Of a stretch of DNA of 64,000 nt, positions 2,903-34,330 are shown piece by piece. The stretch lies in assembly GCA_030018495.1 (NCBI GenBank), contig JASEFS010000018.1, positions 7,591 to 71,590 of the forward strand. Reading direction: 5' to 3'. The notes under the pieces are model-generated. The model made no database searches, had not been told where the DNA came from, and was given only the letters and a program-made list of their open reading frames with translations. The position numbers were made by a program, and so were the translations under genes. Position 1 is the stretch's first letter. Every line of letters begins with the position of its first letter. This stretch comes from Deltaproteobacteria bacterium. Lineage in GTDB: Bacteria; Desulfobacterota; Desulfobaccia; Desulfobaccales; 0-14-0-80-60-11.

Positions 2903-3001
2903 AATAAAAAAACCCCTGTCCCCACCGGTAGTGAGAACAGGAGTCATCAGCTCGAGGCGCAGTTCGGCCGGTACGTTACCCGCCGGGCGGACTCCATCAC
3001 C
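2903..3001 (-). promoter_or_regulatory. fluoride riboswitch 1 (crcB motif, variant with enlarged internal region) plus competing terminator
   Basis: Minus strand: GGUGAUGGAGUCCGCC ... GAAC ... GCUGAUGACUCCUG. The P1 loop GGAGUC is complementary to downstream GACUCC (pseudoknot). CUCCUGUUCUCAC-UACCG-GUGGGGACAGGGG-UUUUUUU forms a terminator whose 5' arm reuses the pseudoknot strand. Confidence 0.7.
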
Positions 3002-3009
3002 TGGTTGAT

Positions 3010-3037
3010 TTTATAAACCCAGGCACCGGAATGTCAA
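3010..3037 (-). promoter_or_regulatory. sigma70-like promoter for riboswitch 1 operon
   Basis: Minus strand TTGACA (3037-3032), 16 nt, TATAAA (3015-3010), 8 nt before the first aptamer G at 3001. Confidence 0.6.
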
Positions 3038-3071: not shown

Positions 3072-3100
3072 TTGACAAAAATAGGAGGCACTCTTAAATT
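3072..3100 (+). promoter_or_regulatory. sigma70-like promoter for riboswitch 2 operon
   Basis: TTGACA (3072-3077), 17 nt, TAAATT (3095-3100), 10 nt before the aptamer start at 3111. Confidence 0.6.
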
Positions 3101-3110
3101 AAAATTAATC

Positions 3111-3196
3111 GGCAATGAGGTCTGCCGCAAACCGCCCCGCTTGCTCAGGGCGGGGATGATGACTTCTGTCCAACGGGCAGAAGTCATTTTTTTTCT
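3111..3196 (+). promoter_or_regulatory. fluoride riboswitch 2 (crcB motif) plus competing terminator
   Basis: GGCAAUGAGGUCUGCC-GCAAAC-CGCCCCGC(UUGCUCA)GGGCGGGG-AUGAUGACUUCUG. Loop GAGGUC pairs with GACUUC. Terminator AUGACUUCUG-UCCAACGGG-CAGAAGUCAU followed by U8 overlaps the pseudoknot strand. Confidence 0.85.
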
Positions 3197-3225
3197 GCCG
3201 CTCACTTTAAAAAGGAGGGACCGCC

Positions 3226-3510
3226 ATGAAGGAGTTTGATGAAATCATTCGGGAAAAGGGGCTGCCCCGCGTGGGGCAGACGGTGCGCAGCAAGAAGTAC
3301 GGCACTCTTTGGCGAGTCATGGAAAAAAGAGAAATATGGCAGTCCATCGCCGATGACCCCCAAACCGGGGAACCGCGTATGATACCGGCTATTTTTTTAT
3401 CTTACTGGAAAATGCAGGAGGGCGGCCAGCCCGGTACCGGAAAAGTCATGGGATTTACCTATACCCTCTATGACAACACCTTTGCGACGCACTGGGAGGT
3501 TGTGCCCTGA
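3226..3510 (+). CDS. conserved small protein of unknown function (94 aa), paralog A, directly behind fluoride riboswitch 2
   Basis: AAGGAGGG SD 6 nt upstream of the ATG. About 72 of 94 residues are identical to the 9770..10057 product by manual alignment. Confidence 0.8.
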   Translation: MKEFDEIIREKGLPRVGQTVRSKKYGTLWRVMEKREIWQSIADDPQTGEPRMIPAIFLSYWKMQEGGQPGTGKVMGFTYTLYDNTFATHWEVVP

Positions 3511-3645
3511 CCTCCAAAGGATGGGTTAAAGGACATCGAAATGCTGGCATTGGAGTGTTGTTGATGACCGATATTGAATCATCCGATCCCCGAAAAATCT
3601 TCAATGGCCCCCCCTCTATCAGGAGAACCGGAAGGAGGTCCGACG

Positions 3646-3864
3646 ATGGGGAAGATTATCGAGCTCCGCCTGACCAAGAAGGCTGTTTACCGGGCCGCGG
3701 TAAAGGAAATGAATAAAATGTATCAGCTCTCTGCGGGCGGCACGGACCCGATCATCGATGAGGCGTCCAGATGGGCGTTTGAAAGAGGCGAAATAGACGA
3801 AGTGATATGGAAGGATTGGGGGTCTTACTGCGTAATGATGTTAAACAGAATAGGAAAAATCTAA
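3646..3864 (+). CDS. hypothetical small protein (72 aa)
   Basis: ATG at 3646 preceded by GGAAGGAGG; the longer track ORF from 3574 lacks an SD. No family recognised. Confidence 0.5.
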   Translation: MGKIIELRLTKKAVYRAAVKEMNKMYQLSAGGTDPIIDEASRWAFERGEIDEVIWKDWGSYCVMMLNRIGKI

Positions 3865-3958
3865 CTAGATAAGTTACTTAAAGAATCCTAAAAAGGCGAG
3901 ACTCTTTAATGTTCAGCAATGTGAAATAAATCTCAAACTATTAAGGAGGAACAGGATT

Positions 3959-5740
3959 ATGGCTAAGTATGACCCCACTAAAATGGAAGACTGGCAAATC
4001 GGTGAGCTCGCCGAAGAGGAGCTGGATTTCAACCGGCAATGTGACAAAATCGGCATCCTGCCCGAAGAGCGCATCCCCATGGGTCGGAAAATCGGCAAAG
4101 TTGACTACATGGCCATCCTGGAGCGCCTCAAGGACAGACCGGACGGCTATTATATCGATATCACCGCCATCACCCCTACTCCCCTGGGAGAGGGTAAGAC
4201 CGTGACCACCATGGGGTTGATTGAAGGCCTGGGCAAGCGGGGCGTGAACGTGGGCGGTGCCATCCGCCAGCCCTCGGGCGGCCCCACCATGAACATCAAG
4301 GGCACCGCGGCGGGCAGCGGCATAGCGCTCTTGATCCCGATGACCGACTTCTCCCTGGGACTCACCGGCGACATCAACGCCATCATGATCGCCAACAATT
4401 TAGCCATGGTGGCCCTGACCTCCCGGCTGCAGCACGAGTTCAATTACGATGATGAGCAACTGGCCAAAATCCCTCTCAAACGCTTGAACATCGATCCCAG
4501 AAGGGTGGAGATGAAATGGTGCTTTGACCTGTGCGCCCAGTCGCTGCGCAACATCACCATCGGCCGGGGCAGCAAGATGGACGGCTACATGATGGACTCC
4601 GGCTTCGTCATCGCGGTGGCCTCGGAAGTGATGGCCATCCTCTCCATGTTCAAAGACCTGCCGGACCTGCGCAAGAGGTTGGGCGAAATCACCGTGGCCT
4701 ATGACAAGAAGGGCAACCCGATTACCACCGAGGACCTGGAGTGCGCCGGGGCCATGACCGCCTGGATGTTTAAGACCATCAACCCCACTCTGTGCGCCAC
4801 CGTGGAATTGCAGCCGGTCTTCGTGCATGCCGGGCCCTTCGGCAACATCGCGGTGGCCCAGTCTTCCATCGTCGCCTGCCGGACCGGTCTGAAGCTCTTT
4901 GACTACCATTGCACTGAGTCCGGCTTCGGCTGCGACCTGGGCTTCGAGAAATTCTGGAACATCAAATGCCGGGAAAGCGGGCTCAAACCCAACGTAGCGG
5001 TGCTTACCAGCTCCATCCGGGCCCTCAAGCACCACGGGGTCAACGCCGGGGCTCTGCCCGTCCGGCCGGGAAAGCCCATTCCCCAGGAGTATTACACCTC
5101 CACCCCCGAGACTTTGGCCTGGCTGGAGGACGGCCTCAAGAACCTGGTCCACAACATCAATATCGTCAAGCAGTCCGGCATCAAGCCGGTGATCTCCATC
5201 AACCGCTTCCCCACCGATACCGATGAGGAGGTCAAGATGGTCAAACGGTGCGCCGAGGCCGAAGGGGTCCGGGCCGCGGAGGGCAACTACTGGCGCTATG
5301 GGGGTGAGGGAGCCCTGGAATTGGCTGACGCGGTCATCGACGCCTGCAAAGAGAAGGTGGACTTCCGGTTCCTTTATCCTACGGAGATGCCGCTGCGCCA
5401 AAAGATTGAAACCATCGCCACCAAAGTGTATGGAGCCAGCGGAGTAGTTTATACGCCCGAAGCTGAGGCCAAGGCGAAGGCTTTTGAAGCCGATCCCAAG
5501 TTCAAAGATTATCACGTAATGATGGTGAAGACGCATCTGTCGTTGACCCACGATCCCACCCGGAAGGGCGTCCCCAAGGGCTGGGACCTGGCGGTCCGGG
5601 ACTTTCTGCTGTACAGCGGCGCCAAGTACATCTGTCCATGTACCGGCACCATCTCACTTATGCCCGGCACCAGCTCCAACCCGGCCTTCCGGAGGGTGGA
5701 CGTGAATCTCGAGACCGGCAAACCTTACGGCCTGTTCTAA
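3959..5740 (+). CDS. fhs: formate--tetrahydrofolate ligase (divergent FTHFS family member)
   Basis: 593 aa. Contains [10 protein letters not shown](V)TT P-loop, [37 protein letters not shown] and a C-terminal GLF, collinear with canonical FTHFS. The glycine-rich loop is altered ([18 protein letters not shown]). Confidence 0.85.
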
Positions 5741-5784
5741 ATGAGGCTTTTTACCACAGGAACCCAGAGTCTAAGGTGTTTTCT

Positions 5785-5813
5785 CGGCTCCCGGGGGCAA
5801 TCTCCGGGAGCCG
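5785..5813. terminator. GC-rich hairpin between convergent fhs and chrB-like genes (possible terminator, no clear U-run)
   Basis: CGGCTCCCGG-GGGCAATCT-CCGGGAGCCG, a perfect 10-bp stem. Confidence 0.3.
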
Positions 5814-5906
5814 GGTGGGCCTATCATACCTAATCCGGCAAGAAAACTTTGGAGGCCTGCCCGGGGTAACTCACTTCTAATTACAAGCACTTGGCCGCCT
5901 GCATAA

Positions 5907-6437
5907 CTAAATTTTGGCTTGGGTGCGCTCATAAACTTTTCTTGCAAAATCATCAAGCATCTTTTCACAAATTTTTATCTTCTCCAAAGCGGTTTTCCTA
6001 AGAGGAGCCTTAATTACATCCCGTTTTTCCACTTTTCTGAACCACTGCTTTAATTTTTCCAGTTCTTCCTCGTTTTCCTCGACTTCCGCGAAGATGAAGT
6101 TCTGTCTTTGAATTTCATATTCCATCTCTTTAAAATAAGCTTCACACTTGTCTATAATTTCCTTATACTCTTCATTTCTGGACTCGGTAAAAGCTTCGAC
6201 GATGAGTTCTTCTTGCTCTTTACTGAGAATTTTTCCCACAATTAACAAGCCCATTCCTTTGAATCCTTTAATATTTTCGATAAGCTTATTGAATTCATTG
6301 ACTCGTTCTGAAGAATACGGGGCCACCCATACCGTCTGGTAGTTGACGGCTCCAATTTTTCTCAACTGCCGCCAAACAAAGACCCTGGCTTTGGAAGGGG
6401 TTGTCGGCAAACTATACGAAAAGAACAGCCATTTCAT
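5907..6437 (-). CDS. ChrB N-terminal-domain-like protein (176 aa)
   Basis: N-terminus MKWLFFSYSLPTTPSKARVFVWRQLRKIGAV resembles the ChrB_N signature (SLPt..s..R...WR.L...GA). The gene is markedly AT-richer than its neighbours. Confidence 0.55.
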   Translation of the reverse strand: MKWLFFSYSLPTTPSKARVFVWRQLRKIGAVNYQTVWVAPYSSERVNEFNKLIENIKGFKGMGLLIVGKILSKEQEELIVEAFTESRNEEYKEIIDKCEAYFKEMEYEIQRQNFIFAEVEENEEELEKLKQWFRKVEKRDVIKAPLRKTALEKIKICEKMLDDFARKVYERTQAKI

Positions 6438-6563
6438 GGAAATACGCCGCCTACCCCCCAGAATGCGAAGTCCCGTCTCCGGGTGGCGTCGGTCGGAAGG
6501 AAATCCGGCAGGGAGCCACCCGACTACTCACTGAGTCCATGCGATTGCGGCATTATATCATCT

Positions 6564-7529
6564 TCAAATCTTCAGGCCCAACATGACTGTTCCGACCACG
6601 AACAGAACATAAAGGGCCATGAGGGTAATGCCCACCCAGCGAGGCGTATGGCCCCGCCAAACGATTATCAGCAAAATGAGCCAACTCAAGGCCACGGCGG
6701 GGAAAAAATAATCCAAAGCCACCGCTTCCACCGTCAGGGGGCGGATCAGGGCGCAAATTCCCAAGGTAAACAGCAGTTGAAAAAAAGAACTGCCCGCGAC
6801 GTTTCCGATAACCACTTCCGGGTGTCCCTTTTGGGCCGGGATGATGGCTTCCACCAATTCCACGGAATTGGCGGCGATGGCCAGCAGGGTCAAACCGAGA
6901 ATGGTCTCCGCGATGCCGGTCCAGATTAGGACCGCTTTCACCCCCTTGATCACCAGGAGAGCGCCCACCACCAAGCCGATGAGCCCGCCCACCAACATGA
7001 GGGGGAAGTGCCAGGCCGGCTCCCGGATGATCTTCTCCACCTCTTCTTCCGCTTCCTCAATCTCCTCCTTGGCAGCCCTGGTTCGCCGCAAGTCGGTGAT
7101 CAGGTAAGCCATGAAAGCCCCGTAAACTCCCAGGACAATAAAGCCATCGGGACGGCTGATCTCCCCGTCAAAGGCCAAAAGGAAAACCAGCAGGAGGACG
7201 CCGCCCAGCATCCAAATGTATTTCAGGGGGAAATCAGGGTGTCTGATGGGAAAAAGGGCCGCCGCCGAGCCCAGGGCGAGAAATATTAAAAAGATAACCG
7301 TGCCCAGGATACTGCCGAAGGCCAGGGCCGTCAGGTGCTGGTAAGCGCCGATGACTGCCGGGGCAAATTCCTCCAGGTCGATGCTGATGATCAGCATGGC
7401 CAGAACAAACGGCGTTACTGCCAAACGGGCGGCCAGGCCGACCAACCCCTCTACCAGGTACTTGGCCGCGAAGATGAGGATCAACACACCGACCAGCAAT
7501 GAGCCGATATTTATATAAAGATTTTCCAC
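6564..7529 (-). CDS. Ca2+/cation antiporter family protein (CaCA, YrbG-like)
   Basis: 321 aa, two hydrophobic halves separated by an acidic loop (EEIEEAEEEVE). Alpha-repeat-like GSILGTVIF and GNVAGSSFF motifs. GTG start with a GGAGG SD. Confidence 0.75.
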   Translation of the reverse strand: MENLYINIGSLLVGVLILIFAAKYLVEGLVGLAARLAVTPFVLAMLIISIDLEEFAPAVIGAYQHLTALAFGSILGTVIFLIFLALGSAAALFPIRHPDFPLKYIWMLGGVLLLVFLLAFDGEISRPDGFIVLGVYGAFMAYLITDLRRTRAAKEEIEEAEEEVEKIIREPAWHFPLMLVGGLIGLVVGALLVIKGVKAVLIWTGIAETILGLTLLAIAANSVELVEAIIPAQKGHPEVVIGNVAGSSFFQLLFTLGICALIRPLTVEAVALDYFFPAVALSWLILLIIVWRGHTPRWVGITLMALYVLFVVGTVMLGLKI

Positions 7530-7780: not shown

Positions 7781-7790
7781 CATCTACAAA

Positions 7791-7873
7791 GGTGATGAAG
7801 TCCGCCATAACCGCCCTGCCTTCCCAGGCGGGGATGATGACTTCTGTCCAGTAGCCGGGCAGAAGTTTTTTTT
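7791..7873 (+). promoter_or_regulatory. fluoride riboswitch 3 (crcB motif) plus competing terminator
   Basis: GGUGAUGAAGUCCGCC-AUAAC-CGCCCUGCC(UUCCC)AGGCGGGG-AUGAUGACUUCUG. Loop GAAGUC is perfectly complementary to GACUUC. Terminator ACUUCUGUCC-AGUAGCC-GGGCAGAAGU followed by U8. Confidence 0.85.
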
Positions 7874-7895
7874 CGCCCGGTCCCAGGAGGACCAT

Positions 7896-9650
7896 ATGGG
7901 AACCTTTCAACAACTCCAGGAGGCCCTGGAGAGGCAGCTTACCCAATTGGCGCGCCTGCCGGAATTTCAGGGTCCCGGCTTGCCCCGGATTTTGGAGAAA
8001 CTGCGACAGAACCGCTTTCATCTGGTGGTGCTGGGGGCTTTCAAGCGGGGCAAAAGCACCCTGATCAACGCCCTGCTGGGCGACCCCATCCTGCCCACCG
8101 CCATCATCCCCCTGACTTCGGTGGTCACCATCCTCACCTATGGGGAGAGTCTGACCATCGAGGTGCGCTTCCATAACGGCCAGCGCCGGCAGATTTCCCA
8201 AGCCGAACTGGTGGATTACATAACCGAGAAGGGCAATCCCGGCAACCGCAAGGGAGTTCAGGAAGTCGAGATTACCTACCCTTCCGACTACCTCAAAGAA
8301 GGAGTGCGGATCATCGACACTCCCGGGGTGGGCTCGGTTTACAGCCATAACACCGACGTGGCTTATAATTACCTGCCCCAAGTGGACGCCGCCATCTTCG
8401 TGGTTACCGTGGACCCGCCCCTGTCCGCGGCGGAGCAGGAGTTTTTGCAGGATATCAGGGAGTTTGTCCACAAGATCTTTTTTGTCCTCAACAAGATTGA
8501 TTACGTGGAGGCCGCGGAGCGGCAGGAAGCCCTGGATTTCACCTCCCAGGTCCTGGCGGCCAACCTGGCAGCCTGCCCGGTGGCAATCTTTCCCCTGTCC
8601 GCCAAGATGGCCCTGGACGGCAAGACCAATGGCCACCCGGAACTCCTGGAGGCGAGCCTCCTGCCCCAATTCGAGGAGCACTTGCGCCAGTTCCTCTACC
8701 GGGAAAAGGGGCGGGTGCTGCTGATTTCCTGCGTCAGCGGGGCCTTGAAGGCCATCACCGACTCCACCCTGGCCCTCAAGGTGGAACGCCAGGCCAGCGG
8801 CCTGCCCTTGAAGGAACTGGAAGAAAAAATCGCCCGCTTTGATCTGGAATTGCAAGGACTGGAAAAAGAGCGGGAGATGTCCCTGCTCCTGCTGGACGGC
8901 CGGGTCAAAGGCGTGGTGGCGCAAGTGGACGCCGACCTGGAGGCTTTTAGAAAAGAAACCACCGCCCGTCTGCGCCGGGAGGTGGAGGCGACCTTCCAGC
9001 AAAAAAGCCGGGCCGCTCTGGACCTGCGGAAAGAGATGGAAGAATTCCTCTTCGCGGCGCTCAGAGATGTCTTCACCACTTGGCGGCGCCAGGAGATCGA
9101 GAAGCTTTCCCAGATATTGGCCGAGACCCACCAGGACTTCGCCGGCCGTATCAACGCCATCCTGGAGCGGCTGACCCAGTTGACCGCCCGCATCTTCGAT
9201 TTTTCCTTGCGGGGCTTTGCGGTGGAGGAAGCCTTCACGGATTTGCGGCAATTCTGGTTCAGGTTTAAGGAAGACCCGGTGGGGCTGGAAATACTGCAGA
9301 TGACCGTTACTTCCCTCTTGCCCAGGGCCCTGACCAAGGGGTTGCTCCTGAAAAAGCTGTTGGAAAATGTCACGGAGTTGGTGGACAAGCACTGCGGGCG
9401 GCTGCGCTATGACTTTCACCAGCGCCTCCAGGAGATTGCCCGGGACTTCCGCCAGACCTGGCTCGCCAGAATTGACGACACCACCCGGAGCATCCGCCAG
9501 GCCCTGGAGCGGGCCCGGGCTCAAAAGCAGACCAGCGCCCAGGCCGTCGCGGCCCGGGCGGGACAACTGGACCAGAGCCTGGCTGAAATCCTGAAGGCCG
9601 AAGCGCAATTGTTAGCCTTGAAGGAGCGCATTGAAGCGACCGTGCATTAA
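7896..9650 (+). CDS. dynamin-family GTPase (bacterial dynamin-like protein, 584 aa)
   Basis: GAFKRGKST (G1), IIDTPG (G3), LNKID (G4), then a long helical/coiled-coil C-terminal half. ATG at 7896 follows an AGGAGG SD; the track extension from 7752 overlaps the riboswitch. Confidence 0.8.
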   Translation: MGTFQQLQEALERQLTQLARLPEFQGPGLPRILEKLRQNRFHLVVLGAFKRGKSTLINALLGDPILPTAIIPLTSVVTILTYGESLTIEVRFHNGQRRQISQAELVDYITEKGNPGNRKGVQEVEITYPSDYLKEGVRIIDTPGVGSVYSHNTDVAYNYLPQVDAAIFVVTVDPPLSAAEQEFLQDIREFVHKIFFVLNKIDYVEAAERQEALDFTSQVLAANLAACPVAIFPLSAKMALDGKTNGHPELLEASLLPQFEEHLRQFLYREKGRVLLISCVSGALKAITDSTLALKVERQASGLPLKELEEKIARFDLELQGLEKEREMSLLLLDGRVKGVVAQVDADLEAFRKETTARLRREVEATFQQKSRAALDLRKEMEEFLFAALRDVFTTWRRQEIEKLSQILAETHQDFAGRINAILERLTQLTARIFDFSLRGFAVEEAFTDLRQFWFRFKEDPVGLEILQMTVTSLLPRALTKGLLLKKLLENVTELVDKHCGRLRYDFHQRLQEIARDFRQTWLARIDDTTRSIRQALERARAQKQTSAQAVAARAGQLDQSLAEILKAEAQLLALKERIEATVH

Positions 9651-9769
9651 CAGCCGCTGGTCCATCCGAATTAACTTGCATCGGTTGAATATGGACTTAA
9701 CATAATTGAGGCGGGGGACGCTGAATATGCTTTTGTCAAAAGATCAATCTTGCTCAAGAGGAGGCGGCA

Positions 9770-10057
9770 ATGAAGGAGTATGACGAGATCATCCGGCAAA
9801 AGGGTCTGCCCCGCGTGGGACAGACGGTGCGCAGCAAAAAGTACGGTACTTTGTGGCGCGTCATGGAGAAAAAGGAGATTTGGCGCAACATCGATCCCGA
9901 CCCCCAAACCGGCGAACCCCGCATGGTCCCGGCCATCTACCTCCTTTACTGGAAGGTTCAGGAAGGAACCCCGCCCGGGGTAGGTAAAATGATGGGCTAC
10001 GAATACACCCTGTACGACAACACCTTTGCCTTAAACTGGGATATCGTCCAAGATTAG
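9770..10057 (+). CDS. conserved small protein of unknown function (95 aa), paralog B
   Basis: GAGGAGG SD; about three quarters identical to the 3226..3510 product. Confidence 0.8.
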   Translation: MKEYDEIIRQKGLPRVGQTVRSKKYGTLWRVMEKKEIWRNIDPDPQTGEPRMVPAIYLLYWKVQEGTPPGVGKMMGYEYTLYDNTFALNWDIVQD

Positions 10058-10068
10058 GCACCTGCCAC

Positions 10069-10106
10069 ACCCGGATTGGGGAGTATTCCGATCCGGGTTT
10101 TCTTTA
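10069..10106 (+). terminator. Rho-independent terminator after paralog B
   Basis: ACCCGGAT-(14 nt)-ATCCGGGT followed by TTTTCTTTAAATTT. Confidence 0.65.
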
Positions 10107-10150
10107 AATTTGGTCAACCACTTTTGCAAAAACAGCGGGGGGCATACGAA

Positions 10151-10786
10151 ATGACCCAAATTATCCTGGTGCGCCACGGCCAAACGCCCTGGAACAAGGA
10201 CAAGATTTTTCGAGGCTCCAAAGACATCCCCTTGAACGACCAGGGGCAAGAGGAAGCCCGCCTGGCCGGGGAATGGCTCAAAGGTGAGACCATTCATGCG
10301 GTTTATACTTCGCCTCTTTCCCGCTCCCGGGATACAGCCCTGGCCATTGCCCGACACCACGGCCTTCAAGTCACGGATTTGCCGGGTCTGAGCGATCTCT
10401 GCTATGGTGATTGGGAAGGTCTGCCCTTAACCGAGGTCAAAGTGAAATATGCTGACCTTTACCGCCAATGGGAGACAGCTCCCCACACAGTGCGCTTCCC
10501 TGGGGGTGAAACTCTGGAGGAGTTGCGCAGCCGCGCCATGGCTGCGGTAAATGAAGTAGTTCAACGACACCCCGGCCAGGTTGTCCTGCTTTCGGCTCAT
10601 CGCGCCGTCAACAAAGTCTTGATCGCCGCTCTCATCGGCCTGGACAATTCCCACTTCTGGCGCATCGGCCAGGATACTACTGCAGTCAACCGTTTTCACC
10701 TGGTCGGCGATGTCTGGCACATCATGTCGATAAACGATGCCTGCCACCTGCGCGGGATGCAACGCGGCGAGTACGTGGATTTTTGA
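10151..10786 (+). CDS. histidine phosphatase family protein (phosphoglycerate mutase-like)
   Basis: N-terminal ILVRHGQTPWN (RHG catalytic motif), later LSAHRAV. ATG at 10151. Confidence 0.8.
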   Translation: MTQIILVRHGQTPWNKDKIFRGSKDIPLNDQGQEEARLAGEWLKGETIHAVYTSPLSRSRDTALAIARHHGLQVTDLPGLSDLCYGDWEGLPLTEVKVKYADLYRQWETAPHTVRFPGGETLEELRSRAMAAVNEVVQRHPGQVVLLSAHRAVNKVLIAALIGLDNSHFWRIGQDTTAVNRFHLVGDVWHIMSINDACHLRGMQRGEYVDF

Positions 10787-10873
10787 TTCCTATCAGGGAG
10801 CTTCACCCTGTTCGCAGGCCAGCGCGCGATTTTAGCCGGTTATTGCCGGTTATTAATACATGGCCGCGGAGTC

Positions 10874-11290
10874 ATGAGATTTTATTGTCCCCGATGCTGG
10901 CAGGATTTTGACAAGGACTTGTCTCGCTGCCCTTACTGCGGCCTTGATATTCACGGATTCTGGAAGTCAAAAGATTACGTGGAAAAATTGATCGTCGCCT
11001 TAAACCATCCGGAACCGGAAACTCCCATCCGGGCGGCGTGGCTTTTGGGAGAACTCAAGGACCCCCGGGCAGTTGAGCCGTTAATCAGGTTGATAAAATA
11101 TACTGAAGATGTGTACATTGCCCAGGCCGCAGTTGAGGCTTTGGGGAAATTTGAAACACCCGAGTCCCTGCATTTCCTGGACACTTTGGTTCATCACCCG
11201 GTCAAAATGGTCAGAGACACGGTGCTGCAAATCCTGGCCTCGCGAAATCGACACCGCCCCTCAACTGAGAAAGGAAAGGAAAATGTATGA
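10874..11290 (+). CDS. zinc-ribbon plus HEAT-repeat protein (138 aa)
   Basis: CPRC...CPYC at the N-terminus, followed by PBS-lyase/HEAT-like repeats ([29 protein letters not shown]). Confidence 0.65.
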
Positions 11291-12558
11291 GTAATAAAAT
11301 CACTTCCGTCCAGGCCATGGAAATCCTTGATTCCCGCGGCAACCCGACGCTTCGTGCTTATGTAACTCTGGACAACGGCATTTCTGCCTCTGCCTCCGTG
11401 CCTTCCGGCGCTTCCACCGGCGAGAACGAAGCCGTGGAATTGCGGGATGGAGATAAAAAGCGCTATGGCGGCAAAGGCGTGTTGAGAGCCGTAGAAAACG
11501 TCAACACGGTTATCGCCTCCCGCCTCATTGGCCATGACCCCAGTCGCCAGGCCGAAATCGACCGCCTCCTGATCGAACTGGATGGCACCTCCAATAAAAG
11601 CAACTTGGGCGCCAACGCTATTCTGGGGGTGTCCATGGCGGTGGCCCGGGCCGCGGCGCAGTCCGCGCAGATCCCTCTTTACCAATATCTCGGTGGGGCT
11701 GGGGCAAGAAGATTGCCGGTCCCCTGCATGAACATCGTCAACGGCGGCCAACATGCCGACAACAGTGTGGACATCCAGGAATTCATGGCTGTTCCCATCG
11801 GCGCGCCTTCTTTCCGGGAGGGACTGCGTTACGTGGCGGAAACCTTCCATACCCTTAAGGGAATTTTGAAGGCTCGGGGCCTGGCGACCAGCGTTGGTGA
11901 CGAGGGCGGCTTCGCGCCGAATTTTTCCAGCAACGAGGATGCCATAGAAACGATCCTGCAGGCGATTGACAAGGCAGGCTACAAGCCCGGGGAGCAGATT
12001 GCCATTGCCTTGGACAGCGCCGCGAGTTCCTTTGCGCTGGATCGGGTCGGGGAGTACGACCTGAAGCGCTCCCGAGCCGGAAGAAAGACCAGCAGTGAGC
12101 TTATTGCTATGGCCGGCGAATGGCTCGAGAAATACCCCATCGTTCTCTGGGAAGACCCGTTGGCGGAAGGGGATTGGGAGGGATTTAAGCAGTTTACGGC
12201 TAAATATGGCGGGAAAATCGAAGTTGTCGGCGACGACATCTTTGTCACCAATACAAAATACATAGCCAGGGGGATCAAAGAAGGCACCGCGAATTCGGCG
12301 CTGATCAAGCTGAACCAGATCGGCACCGTAACTGAAACGATCGAAGCAGTGCGCATGTGCCGTGAGGCGGGTTGGCGCTATTTCCTCTCGCATCGGTCCG
12401 GAGAGACGGAAGACACCTTTCTGGCGGATTTTGCCGTCGCCATGGATGGGGGGCACCTCAAGACCGGCTCGGCAAGCCGCAGCGAGCGGATCGCCAAATA
12501 CAACCGCTTGTTGGAAATCGAGCAGGAGATTGGGAAAGAAGCTTTGTTTTACTGGTGA
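11287..12558 (+). CDS. eno: enolase (phosphopyruvate hydratase)
   Basis: 423 aa. [30 protein letters not shown] and [20 protein letters not shown] motifs. The ATG overlaps the upstream stop (ATGA). Confidence 0.95.
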
Positions 12559-33127: not shown

Positions 33128-34330
33128 CTAATCGGCTTTTCTTAAAAACGGCGGGGTGTCCAGTTCGCTCTCCTCGTATTGCAGGTCAGGATGCACCACA
33201 TATTTTTTGCCGCTTACCACTCCCAGGGCCGGAGACCGTTTTTCCGCGGCCTGGCTTTCCCCGGCTCTGGGCAGTTCTCCTTTTCTGAGTATGGTGGGTA
33301 TATCCAAATCCTCCATTTCAGGCGTTTCAGCGGCTGAAGGCTGCCAGGCGGCCATATCCCGTTCCATATCACCTTTCTTGCCTATGCCGGTGGCGATCAC
33401 CGTGACCCGAATCTCCTCGTTCAGGCTGTCGTCGTAGACCAGGCCCCATTTGATGAGGGCGTCGTCATGAGCCTCATCCTGGATGATACTGCAAATTTCC
33501 CGCAGTTCTTCCATGGAAAAATCCTGGGAGGAAGTGATGTTGATGAGGATGCCCCGGGCCCCCCGGATGGAGATGTCTTCCAGCAGGGGATGGGAGATGG
33601 CTTTCTGGGCCGCGTCCTGAGCTCTGGCATTGCCGCTGGCGATGCCGGTGCCCATGAGGGCCATGCCGCCTTCCCGCATGATGGTGCGCACGTCGGCGAA
33701 GTCCACTTTGACATAGCCGGGAACCATAATGAGGTCGGAAATGCCTCGCACGGCCGCGCCCAGCACTTCATTGGCCATGGAAAAGATATCGGTGGTGCGG
33801 GAGTTTTTGGCCCCCAGGCTGAACAGGCGGTCATTCGGTATGGTGATGATGGTGTCGGCCACCCGGCGCAGTTCCTCGATGCCCTTCTCCGCCAACCGGG
33901 TTTTCATTTTGCCCTCAAATTCAAAGGGCTTGCTGACCACCGCCACGGTCAAAGCCCCCACTTCCCGGCTGATTTCCGCCACAATGGGAGCGCCGCCGGT
34001 GCCGGTGCCGCCGCCCATGCCCGCGGCGATAAACACCATGTCGGCTCCCTGGAGGACCTGTTTGATCCGTTCCGCTTCCTCTTTGGTGGCTTCCCGGCCG
34101 ATTTCGGGATTGCCGCCGGCTCCCAAGCCCCGGGTGACCGTGGTGCCCAATTGAATTTTTACGGAGGCCAGGCTGCGCTCCAGGGACATGGCATCGGAAT
34201 TGGCGGCGATGAAGTCCACCCCCACCATGTTTGATTTGATCATGTCATTGATGGCGTTGCCGCCGGCGCCGCCGACGCCCAAGACTTTAATCTTGGCTGA
34301 CAATTCACTGGGGACCAATTGAATTTTCAT
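33128..34330 (-). CDS. ftsZ: cell division protein FtsZ
   Basis: GVGGAGGNAINDM, GMGGGTGTGGAPIVA tubulin signature; ATG at 34330 with a purine-rich SD. Confidence 0.95.
   Translation of the reverse strand: MKIQLVPSELSAKIKVLGVGGAGGNAINDMIKSNMVGVDFIAANSDAMSLERSLASVKIQLGTTVTRGLGAGGNPEIGREATKEEAERIKQVLQGADMVFIAAGMGGGTGTGGAPIVAEISREVGALTVAVVSKPFEFEGKMKTRLAEKGIEELRRVADTIITIPNDRLFSLGAKNSRTTDIFSMANEVLGAAVRGISDLIMVPGYVKVDFADVRTIMREGGMALMGTGIASGNARAQDAAQKAISHPLLEDISIRGARGILINITSSQDFSMEELREICSIIQDEAHDDALIKWGLVYDDSLNEEIRVTVIATGIGKKGDMERDMAAWQPSAAETPEMEDLDIPTILRKGELPRAGESQAAEKRSPALGVVSGKKYVVHPDLQYEESELDTPPFLRKAD

Follow-up and report, generated by a model that had tools for sequence, protein, structure and literature searches.

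A gene for a formate–tetrahydrofolate (THF) ligase (FTHFS), which we name fhsA, was found behind a fluoride riboswitch and two genes for small proteins, orf94 and orf72, in a 64,000-nucleotide stretch of the genome of a Deltaproteobacteria bacterium (contig JASEFS010000018.1, positions 7,591 to 71,590; this whole stretch is referred to as the window and positions are numbered from its first letter). A 'fluoride island' in this Desulfobaccales-like Thermodesulfobacteriota genome has three fluoride-riboswitch units, and the one described here is the second. The aptamer, its terminator, the gene order, the conservation of that order among relatives and the presence of two fhs paralogs on one related contig are direct observations. 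On this basis we consider it probable that fhsA is a fluoride-controlled, dedicated paralog, in an operon with orf94 and orf72, which backs up an FTHFS step impaired by fluoride; the co-transcription, fluoride induction and physiological role of fhsA we infer from the comparisons set out below.

Riboswitch 2 and the probable transcription unit behind it

The aptamer upstream of orf94 (riboswitch 2; coordinates and scores of all features are given in Table 1) is preceded by a near-consensus promoter-like site and scored 69 bits with R1, a covariance model of our own built from 44 fluoride aptamers, which replaced a simple regular expression that recovered under half of the Rfam matches. The terminator hairpin takes its 5' arm from the conserved 3' strand of the aptamer, so the expression platform competes with the aptamer; by this layout riboswitch 2 is predicted to be a standard transcriptional ON switch, acting by anti-termination. 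An Rfam scan of the 64 kb returned three matches to RF01734 (riboswitches 1 to 3) and no ZTP or THF riboswitch. R1 gave one further, weak and partial match at 34205–34255 (17.7 bits, E 0.022, model positions 10–60), which lies below all of the matches reported by Rfam and is probably due to chance.

Without fluoride, a transcript starting at about position 3107 would stop at this terminator; with fluoride bound, the aptamer would hold the 5' arm of the terminator and RNA polymerase would read through orf94, orf72 and fhsA, to give a single mRNA ending near a hairpin past fhsA. Consensus scans of the + strand from 3189 to 5740 found no terminator-like or sigma-70-like site, except for a weak 5-bp match inside fhs, and the spacers of 135 nt (orf94–orf72) and 94 nt (orf72–fhs) folded no better than shuffled sequences (z +0.9 and +0.3 respectively). 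The same picture was obtained in 17 operon-type relatives: no terminator-like site was present between orf94 and fhs in 15 of these loci, and the promoter matches found in that interval were weak and non-conserved. An earlier note on this DNA, made from the sequence alone, had given exactly the coordinates found here for the 72-aa open reading frame (ORF) and fhs, and its observation that no terminator separates orf94 (its 'paralog A'), the 72-aa ORF and fhs is borne out by these scans and by the unstructured spacers. The first strong hairpin past fhs, which it had placed at 5785–5813, was also recovered, with slightly wider limits (Table 1), and is probably the 3' end or a stabiliser of the transcript.

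We conclude that fhs is most likely in the same transcription unit as riboswitch 2, because the order riboswitch–orf94–(orf72)–fhs is kept in 16 of 22 related loci despite rearranged flanks. The possibility raised in the earlier note, that fhs may be under fluoride control, thus appears well supported by comparative genomics.

The linkage among relatives and the second paralog

We fetched 80 genome loci carrying relatives of fhs, together with 12 loci from metagenome contigs, and scanned them with Rfam and R1; individual loci are cited here by L numbers. Clade A was defined as the fhs genes that are 81–94% identical to that of the window, and comprised sequences from Desulfobacca, Desulfobaccales, Syntrophobacterales and unclassified Thermodesulfobacteriota metagenome-assembled genomes (MAGs). 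Twenty-two clade-A loci had enough upstream sequence to be counted, with two further loci being cut by contig ends. A + strand fluoride riboswitch lay 0.8–0.9 kb upstream of fhs in the 16 linked loci (the window, L001, L002, L005, L009–L013, L015, L017–L020, L081 and L089). In all of these orf94 is found between riboswitch and fhs, as is orf72 save in L010, L017 and L018; the outer flanks vary, and riboswitch–orf94–fhs persists in the three loci that have no orf72. By comparison, no fluoride riboswitch occurred within 10 kb in any of 59 loci of more distant subfamily members (60–68% identity), and the four loci (L085–L088) of the sister group described next had none. The riboswitch link appears to be ancestral to clade A, because it spans the deepest branches of the clade in a neighbour-joining tree.

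A protein search identified a second group of fhs sequences, of 68–72% identity and from the same kind of organisms (clade B; fhsB). On a 292-kb contig type that was present in four samples (L081–L084), fhsB and fhsA lie 8 kb apart. In L081, fhsB encodes a protein of 594 aa, is divergent from DUF5981 and MTHFR genes (metVF-type Wood–Ljungdahl genes) and has no riboswitch; the fluoride island of the same contig has Usp and Na+/H+ exchanger genes on one side, and a riboswitch (9120–9193), an orf94–orf72 fusion and an fhsA of 593 aa. The L081 FhsA is 71% identical to the L081 FhsB and 92% identical to the window enzyme. Given that this contig carries both paralogs, with a riboswitch only at fhsA, fhsA is a dedicated second copy in L081–L084. 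The clade-B loci L085–L088 likewise adjoin MTHFR genes and their fhsB ends in a canonical terminator of its own. Clades A and B were sister clades in the neighbour-joining tree, and therefore the fhs duplication took place within this lineage.

The earlier note had raised the matter of a second fhs in the genome. This was found in the close relative L081, where the second copy is 71% identical, stands beside MTHFR and has no riboswitch, and not in the window, which has one copy; for the genome of the window we infer the second copy from these relatives. A conserved element reading CATGTGAAAAAAAGTAT(A/G)AGC was noted upstream of fhsB (L085, 9830–10000; L081, 2227–2400) and also upstream of a deep-branching clade-A copy in L016 (1–183), and could be a promoter or regulatory sequence that both inherited from the ancestral gene.

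Sequence comparison of the two clades indicated that clade A is only mildly shifted in function. Its mean identity to 59 outgroup sequences was 62.8%, compared with 64.8% for clade B. Clade A has seven fixed changes (M22L, H146N, A295G, G300A, I327L, F557Y and D583N) at columns that are invariant in clade B and the 59 outgroups, and clade B has one at the reciprocal column set. Three of the clade-A changes occur within motifs that are kept as far as Moorella, with AHNL changed to ANNL and PFANIAxG to PFGNIAxA (Moorella H140, A276 and G281). These substitutions would neither support nor exclude fluoride tolerance of FhsA.

The enzyme and its possible place in a fluoride response

The window enzyme matched Pfam PF01268 end to end (662.9 bits, gathering threshold 27; residues 10–593 spanning profile positions 2–556 of 556), in agreement with the earlier note's view of it as collinear with canonical FTHFS. 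It is also collinear over its full length with the FTHFS of Moorella thermoacetica (PDB 1EG7, 1FP7 and 4IOJ; 410 bits), with clear differences. The description of the enzyme as divergent was, however, overstated: it passes the NCBIfam equivalog NF010032/PRK13507, if narrowly (949.1 versus a cutoff of 938 bits), and scores below the cutoffs of the two remaining FTHFS equivalogs (551 versus 800 and 518 versus 652 bits). The P-loop GEGKT, the arginine of R-x-PS and TGD (LTGD) are all present, aligned to PAGEGKTT, LREPS and FTGD of Moorella, and catalysis with formate, ATP and THF is the predicted activity.

The earlier note had further proposed, from an altered glycine-rich loop, that this enzyme could be a fluoride-tolerant isozyme. 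A difference from the Moorella-type FTHFS does exist in this loop, in line with that note: in an alignment with M. thermoacetica FTHFS (PDB 4IOJ/1FP7) this position reads LREPSLGPSFGIKGGAAGGG, and the window enzyme departs from it there. However, a loop of the form RQPSGGP[TS]MN[IV]KG[ST]AAG[GS]G was carried by 113 of the 120 top-scoring homologues in the database, whether riboswitch-linked or not, and among the 80 genome loci the loop was found, as such or slightly varied (T[MF], one SSGP and one SAGP), in 76, with the pattern unmatched in the other four. Its bearers include Dehalococcoidia, Bacillota and Planctomycetota copies as well as the riboswitch-less paralog fhsB. The serine of AAGSG is the sole clade-restricted change in the loop; it is confined to a clade at ≥89% identity and is missing from the riboswitch-linked loci L010, L012, L013, L015 and L018. 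Because the loop is common to the subfamily, including copies without a riboswitch, we read it from this distribution as a signature of the NF010032/PRK13507-type subfamily and not as a fluoride adaptation, and consider the loop-based isozyme very improbable.

A further feature is shared by the subfamily. Glu98 of Moorella FTHFS was reportedly described by Radfar and co-workers in 2000 as a monovalent-cation ligand, and it is said to be conserved in bacterial FTHFS. The window enzyme has a glutamine at this position (Q104 of IRQPS), as does the NF010032-type subfamily throughout, which suggests that the cation dependence of this subfamily is different. The neighbouring Arg97 of Moorella, next to the altered loop, presumably contacts formyl phosphate, which speaks for the loop-based reading.

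In the reading that we favour, fhsA would be a lineage-specific paralog of the housekeeping Wood–Ljungdahl FTHFS gene fhsB, born by duplication within the lineage, and would supply extra and possibly more fluoride-tolerant FTHFS when fluoride impairs the Mg-ATP/acyl-phosphate step, with orf94 and orf72 as accessory proteins acting together. The enolase copy of the adjacent unit, likewise controlled by a riboswitch, would follow the same logic. A simple compensation of dosage, which has been put forward for enolase linked to a riboswitch (PMC11139923), would fit the data equally well. It is unlikely, in our estimate, that FhsA is truly fluoride-resistant, by way of H146N, A295G, G300A, F557Y and D583N and/or binding of the orf94 and orf72 products (which would make these a new type of enzyme-protecting accessory factor), and that FTHFS is an unrecognised important target of fluoride in Wood–Ljungdahl anaerobes.

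A different role would lie in coping with the acid stress of fluoride (HF) by handling formate or ATP, with FhsA either consuming formate or gaining ATP through conversion of 10-formyl-THF to formate. This would parallel the known link of fluoride riboswitches with formate hydrogen lyase, and the Na+/H+ and Ca2+/Na+ exchangers and Usp of the island point to a response in pH and ion homeostasis. However, it does not account for the retention of a distinct paralog, with substitutions specific to its clade, in place of dual control of fhsB, and no formate transporter or dehydrogenase was found among the annotated genes of positions 1–20130; we regard this role as doubtful.

Fluoride control of fhsA also has to be weighed against a palindrome of the CRP/FNR type, TGTGA-N6-TCTCA, located 23 nt before the start codon of fhs. 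A palindrome is present 22–27 nt before the fhsA ATG in 10 of 14 operon loci, in the perfect form TTGTGA-N6-TCACAA in L002, L005, L013 and L020, and is also kept in L004, which has no orf94 or orf72. The site in the window, taken alone, is not above chance. An RNA hairpin was considered at this position and rejected, since changes in the right half are not compensated in the left, which never varies, and the orf72–fhs spacer folds no better than its shuffled versions. Such a pattern is more in keeping with a DNA site bound by a protein than with a hairpin, and the palindrome may be a second regulatory input or an operator for a second regulator; it is the chief ground for retaining independent regulation as an alternative.

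Several observations weigh against the proposal that fhsA is a fluoride-controlled back-up. The conserved palindrome just upstream of fhsA points to separate regulation, and the 135- and 94-nt spacers could conceal a non-consensus promoter. The hairpin past fhs has no U tract. Six clade-A loci (L003, L004, L006, L007, L008 and L021) have an fhsA without a riboswitch, which argues that fhsA can work on its own, and the linked loci are related MAGs, so that 16 of 22 does not represent independent events. The locus L092 (7662–8590) has a riboswitch, an orf94 remnant and orf72 but no fhsA, and is followed directly by the next riboswitch and a dynamin-like GTPase gene; orf72 behind a riboswitch without fhsA indicates that the modules are separable. 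In addition, no second fhs lies within the 64 kb of the window, and a literature search found no published evidence of fluoride inhibiting FTHFS.

Taken furthest, these points would have fhsA driven by its own promoter in the orf72–fhs spacer under a CRP/FNR-family regulator, with its position behind the riboswitch reflecting inherited gene order. The conserved spacing of the palindrome, its retention in L004, the six riboswitch-less loci and the phylogenetic closeness of all the loci favour this explanation. However, no sigma-70-like promoter was detected in the orf72–fhs spacer, while those of the riboswitches in the window come close to the consensus; the palindrome is too near the start codon for a class II activator site; and the link of riboswitch, orf94 and fhsA outlasts both the loss of orf72 (L010, L017 and L018) and differing outer flanks. 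CRP/FNR-like and fluoride inputs could also coexist. We therefore hold an independent promoter to be unlikely, and retain fluoride control through riboswitch 2 as the better account.

The small proteins, known systems and the fluoride island

Sequence comparison shows both orf94 and orf72 to be genuine genes that evolve under constraint. More than 585 homologues of orf94 were found, none of them with a Pfam domain, and 105 of orf72 (65–97% identity); both families have many invariant residues. The orf72 family is very narrow: out of 1.84 billion representatives it accounts for only 20 clusters at 50% identity, including a 214-aa fusion. Neither protein matched Pfam or NCBIfam. AlphaFold2 modelled orf94 as a small alpha+beta protein (predicted local distance difference test score, pLDDT, 89.8) and orf72 as three helices (pLDDT 74), and a fold search of the PDB gave no significant match for either model. 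In L081 (9246–9896) and L011 (9066–9725), orf94 and orf72 form a single ORF of 216–219 aa with a serine-rich linker, and because of this fusion the two proteins most likely act together. In the window they share a frame (3226–3864) but three stops intervene; selenocysteine or read-through at an in-frame TGA between them was ruled out on account of these three stops. The window also has a second member of the orf94 family (paralog B), 77% identical, and several further paralogs are found elsewhere directly behind other fluoride riboswitches.

Baker and colleagues, in 2012, reportedly described fluoride-riboswitch-controlled copies of fluoride-sensitive enzymes. Such copies are documented for enolase, a classical fluoride target and known riboswitch-associated gene, and for inorganic pyrophosphatase (PMC11139923). 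The fhsA unit resembles these in having an RF01734 aptamer with an overlapping terminator before an enzyme of central metabolism with Mg/phosphoryl chemistry, in probably being an extra copy beside a housekeeping one, and in lying in an island with a Na+/H+ antiporter, Usp and enolase. It differs in that the enzyme is FTHFS, which the gene lists consulted do not name, and is preceded by two lineage-restricted small proteins; a fluoride exporter gene, crcB or eriC-F, was not found among the annotated genes of positions 1–20130. The association of Na+/H+ antiporters and of enolase with such riboswitches is established, and a link from fluoride to formate metabolism is provided by formate hydrogen lyase (PMC2864571; PMC11139923).

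Control of fhs by a riboswitch has a precedent in the pfl/ZTP riboswitch (Weinberg et al., 2010, PMC2864571), and fhsA likewise follows an ON-type transcriptional riboswitch; ZTP, however, reports a shortage of 10-formyl-THF for purine synthesis, whereas the sensor here is that of fluoride. Multiple fhs paralogs are known in Wood–Ljungdahl organisms such as syntrophic acetate oxidisers (PMC3584212). Like these, relatives L081–L084 have two fhs in the same genome, and one of the two adjoins further Wood–Ljungdahl genes; the link of the additional copy with a fluoride sensor sets them apart. An FTHFS linked to a fluoride riboswitch was not found described in the searchable literature, the original gene list of Baker et al. 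(2012) lying outside that check. The best description of fhsA with its two orphan accessory proteins is as a new addition to the fluoride-riboswitch regulon in Desulfobaccales-like bacteria.

What fluoride harms in the cell has mainly been learned from the genes behind fluoride riboswitches, which have pointed to exporters, enolase, pyrophosphatase and pH homeostasis. The presence of a conserved, dedicated FTHFS paralog behind a switch of this kind suggests fluoride sensitivity of the ATP-dependent formate step in the Wood–Ljungdahl pathway of acetate-oxidising and acetogenic anaerobes. FhsA and FhsB provide a ready natural experiment, being 71% identical with a handful of substitutions at otherwise invariant sites, and the fluoride response gains two small, tightly linked and uncharacterised members in orf94 and orf72. 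Fluoride-insensitive enzymes have been named as a research need in organofluorine bioengineering (PMC11139923, Box 1). We judge the finding to be of moderate interest, and of higher interest should FhsA or the small proteins confer fluoride resistance on the FTHFS step.

Table 1. Features of the fhsA unit and of the surrounding fluoride island, in window coordinates
Feature	Positions	Strand	Evidence or remark
Promoter-like site TTGACA-17-TAAATT of the riboswitch-2 transcript	3072–3100	+	10/12 consensus matches, near-consensus
Fluoride riboswitch 2, aptamer	3102–3175	+	Rfam RF01734, 44.2 bits (gathering threshold 34), E 5.6e-9
Expression platform of riboswitch 2	3158–3196	+	14-bp terminator hairpin (3158–3188) plus T8; overlaps 3' strand of aptamer
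orf94 (paralog A), 94 aa, first gene of operon	3226–3510	+	ORF with AGGAGG ribosome-binding site
orf72, 72 aa	3646–3864	+	ORF; AGGAGG 7 nt upstream
CRP/FNR-like palindrome	3920–3935		see text
fhsA, 593-aa formate–tetrahydrofolate ligase (clade-A paralog)	3959–5740	+	ORF; AGGAGG 8 nt upstream; PF01268, NF010032
14-bp G+C-rich hairpin past fhs	5783–5815	+	fold z −2.3; no U tract
Fluoride riboswitch 1, divergent	2931–3010	−	RF01734; drives orf116, CPA2 Na+/H+ exchanger and Usp
Promoter-like site TTGACA-18-TAAAAT of riboswitch 1	3037–3008	−	consensus scan
orf116, 116 aa, probably a small membrane protein starting at an internal Met	2575–2925	−	ORF
CPA2 Na+/H+ exchanger	1323–2528	−	behind riboswitch 1
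Universal stress protein (Usp)	714–1136	−	behind riboswitch 1
ChrB_N-domain protein and Na+/Ca2+ exchanger	5907–7529	−	between riboswitch units; no riboswitch of their own
Fluoride riboswitch 3	7782–7853	+	RF01734; unit 7782–12558
Dynamin-like GTPase	7899–9650	+	behind riboswitch 3
orf94 paralog B	9770–10048	+	riboswitch-3 unit
His_Phos_1 phosphoglycerate-mutase-type protein (phosphatase/mutase)	10076–10786	+	riboswitch-3 unit
HEAT-repeat protein	10874–11290	+	riboswitch-3 unit
Enolase	11287–12558	+	riboswitch-3 unit

The units on either side of fhsA were also compared with those of relatives. In relatives the riboswitch-1 unit often gains a transporter of the major facilitator superfamily. 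A dynamin-like GTPase gene, as in the riboswitch-3 unit, stands directly behind a fluoride riboswitch in at least nine related loci, an arrangement for which no description was found in the searchable literature. Two related islands, those of L010 and L012, also contain homologues of the ChrB_N-domain protein. These two islands (L010, 8406–9428; L012, 6313–12370) have five or six fluoride riboswitches per 6–10 kb, several of which each drive a gene of the orf94 family, an unusually dense cluster of riboswitches.

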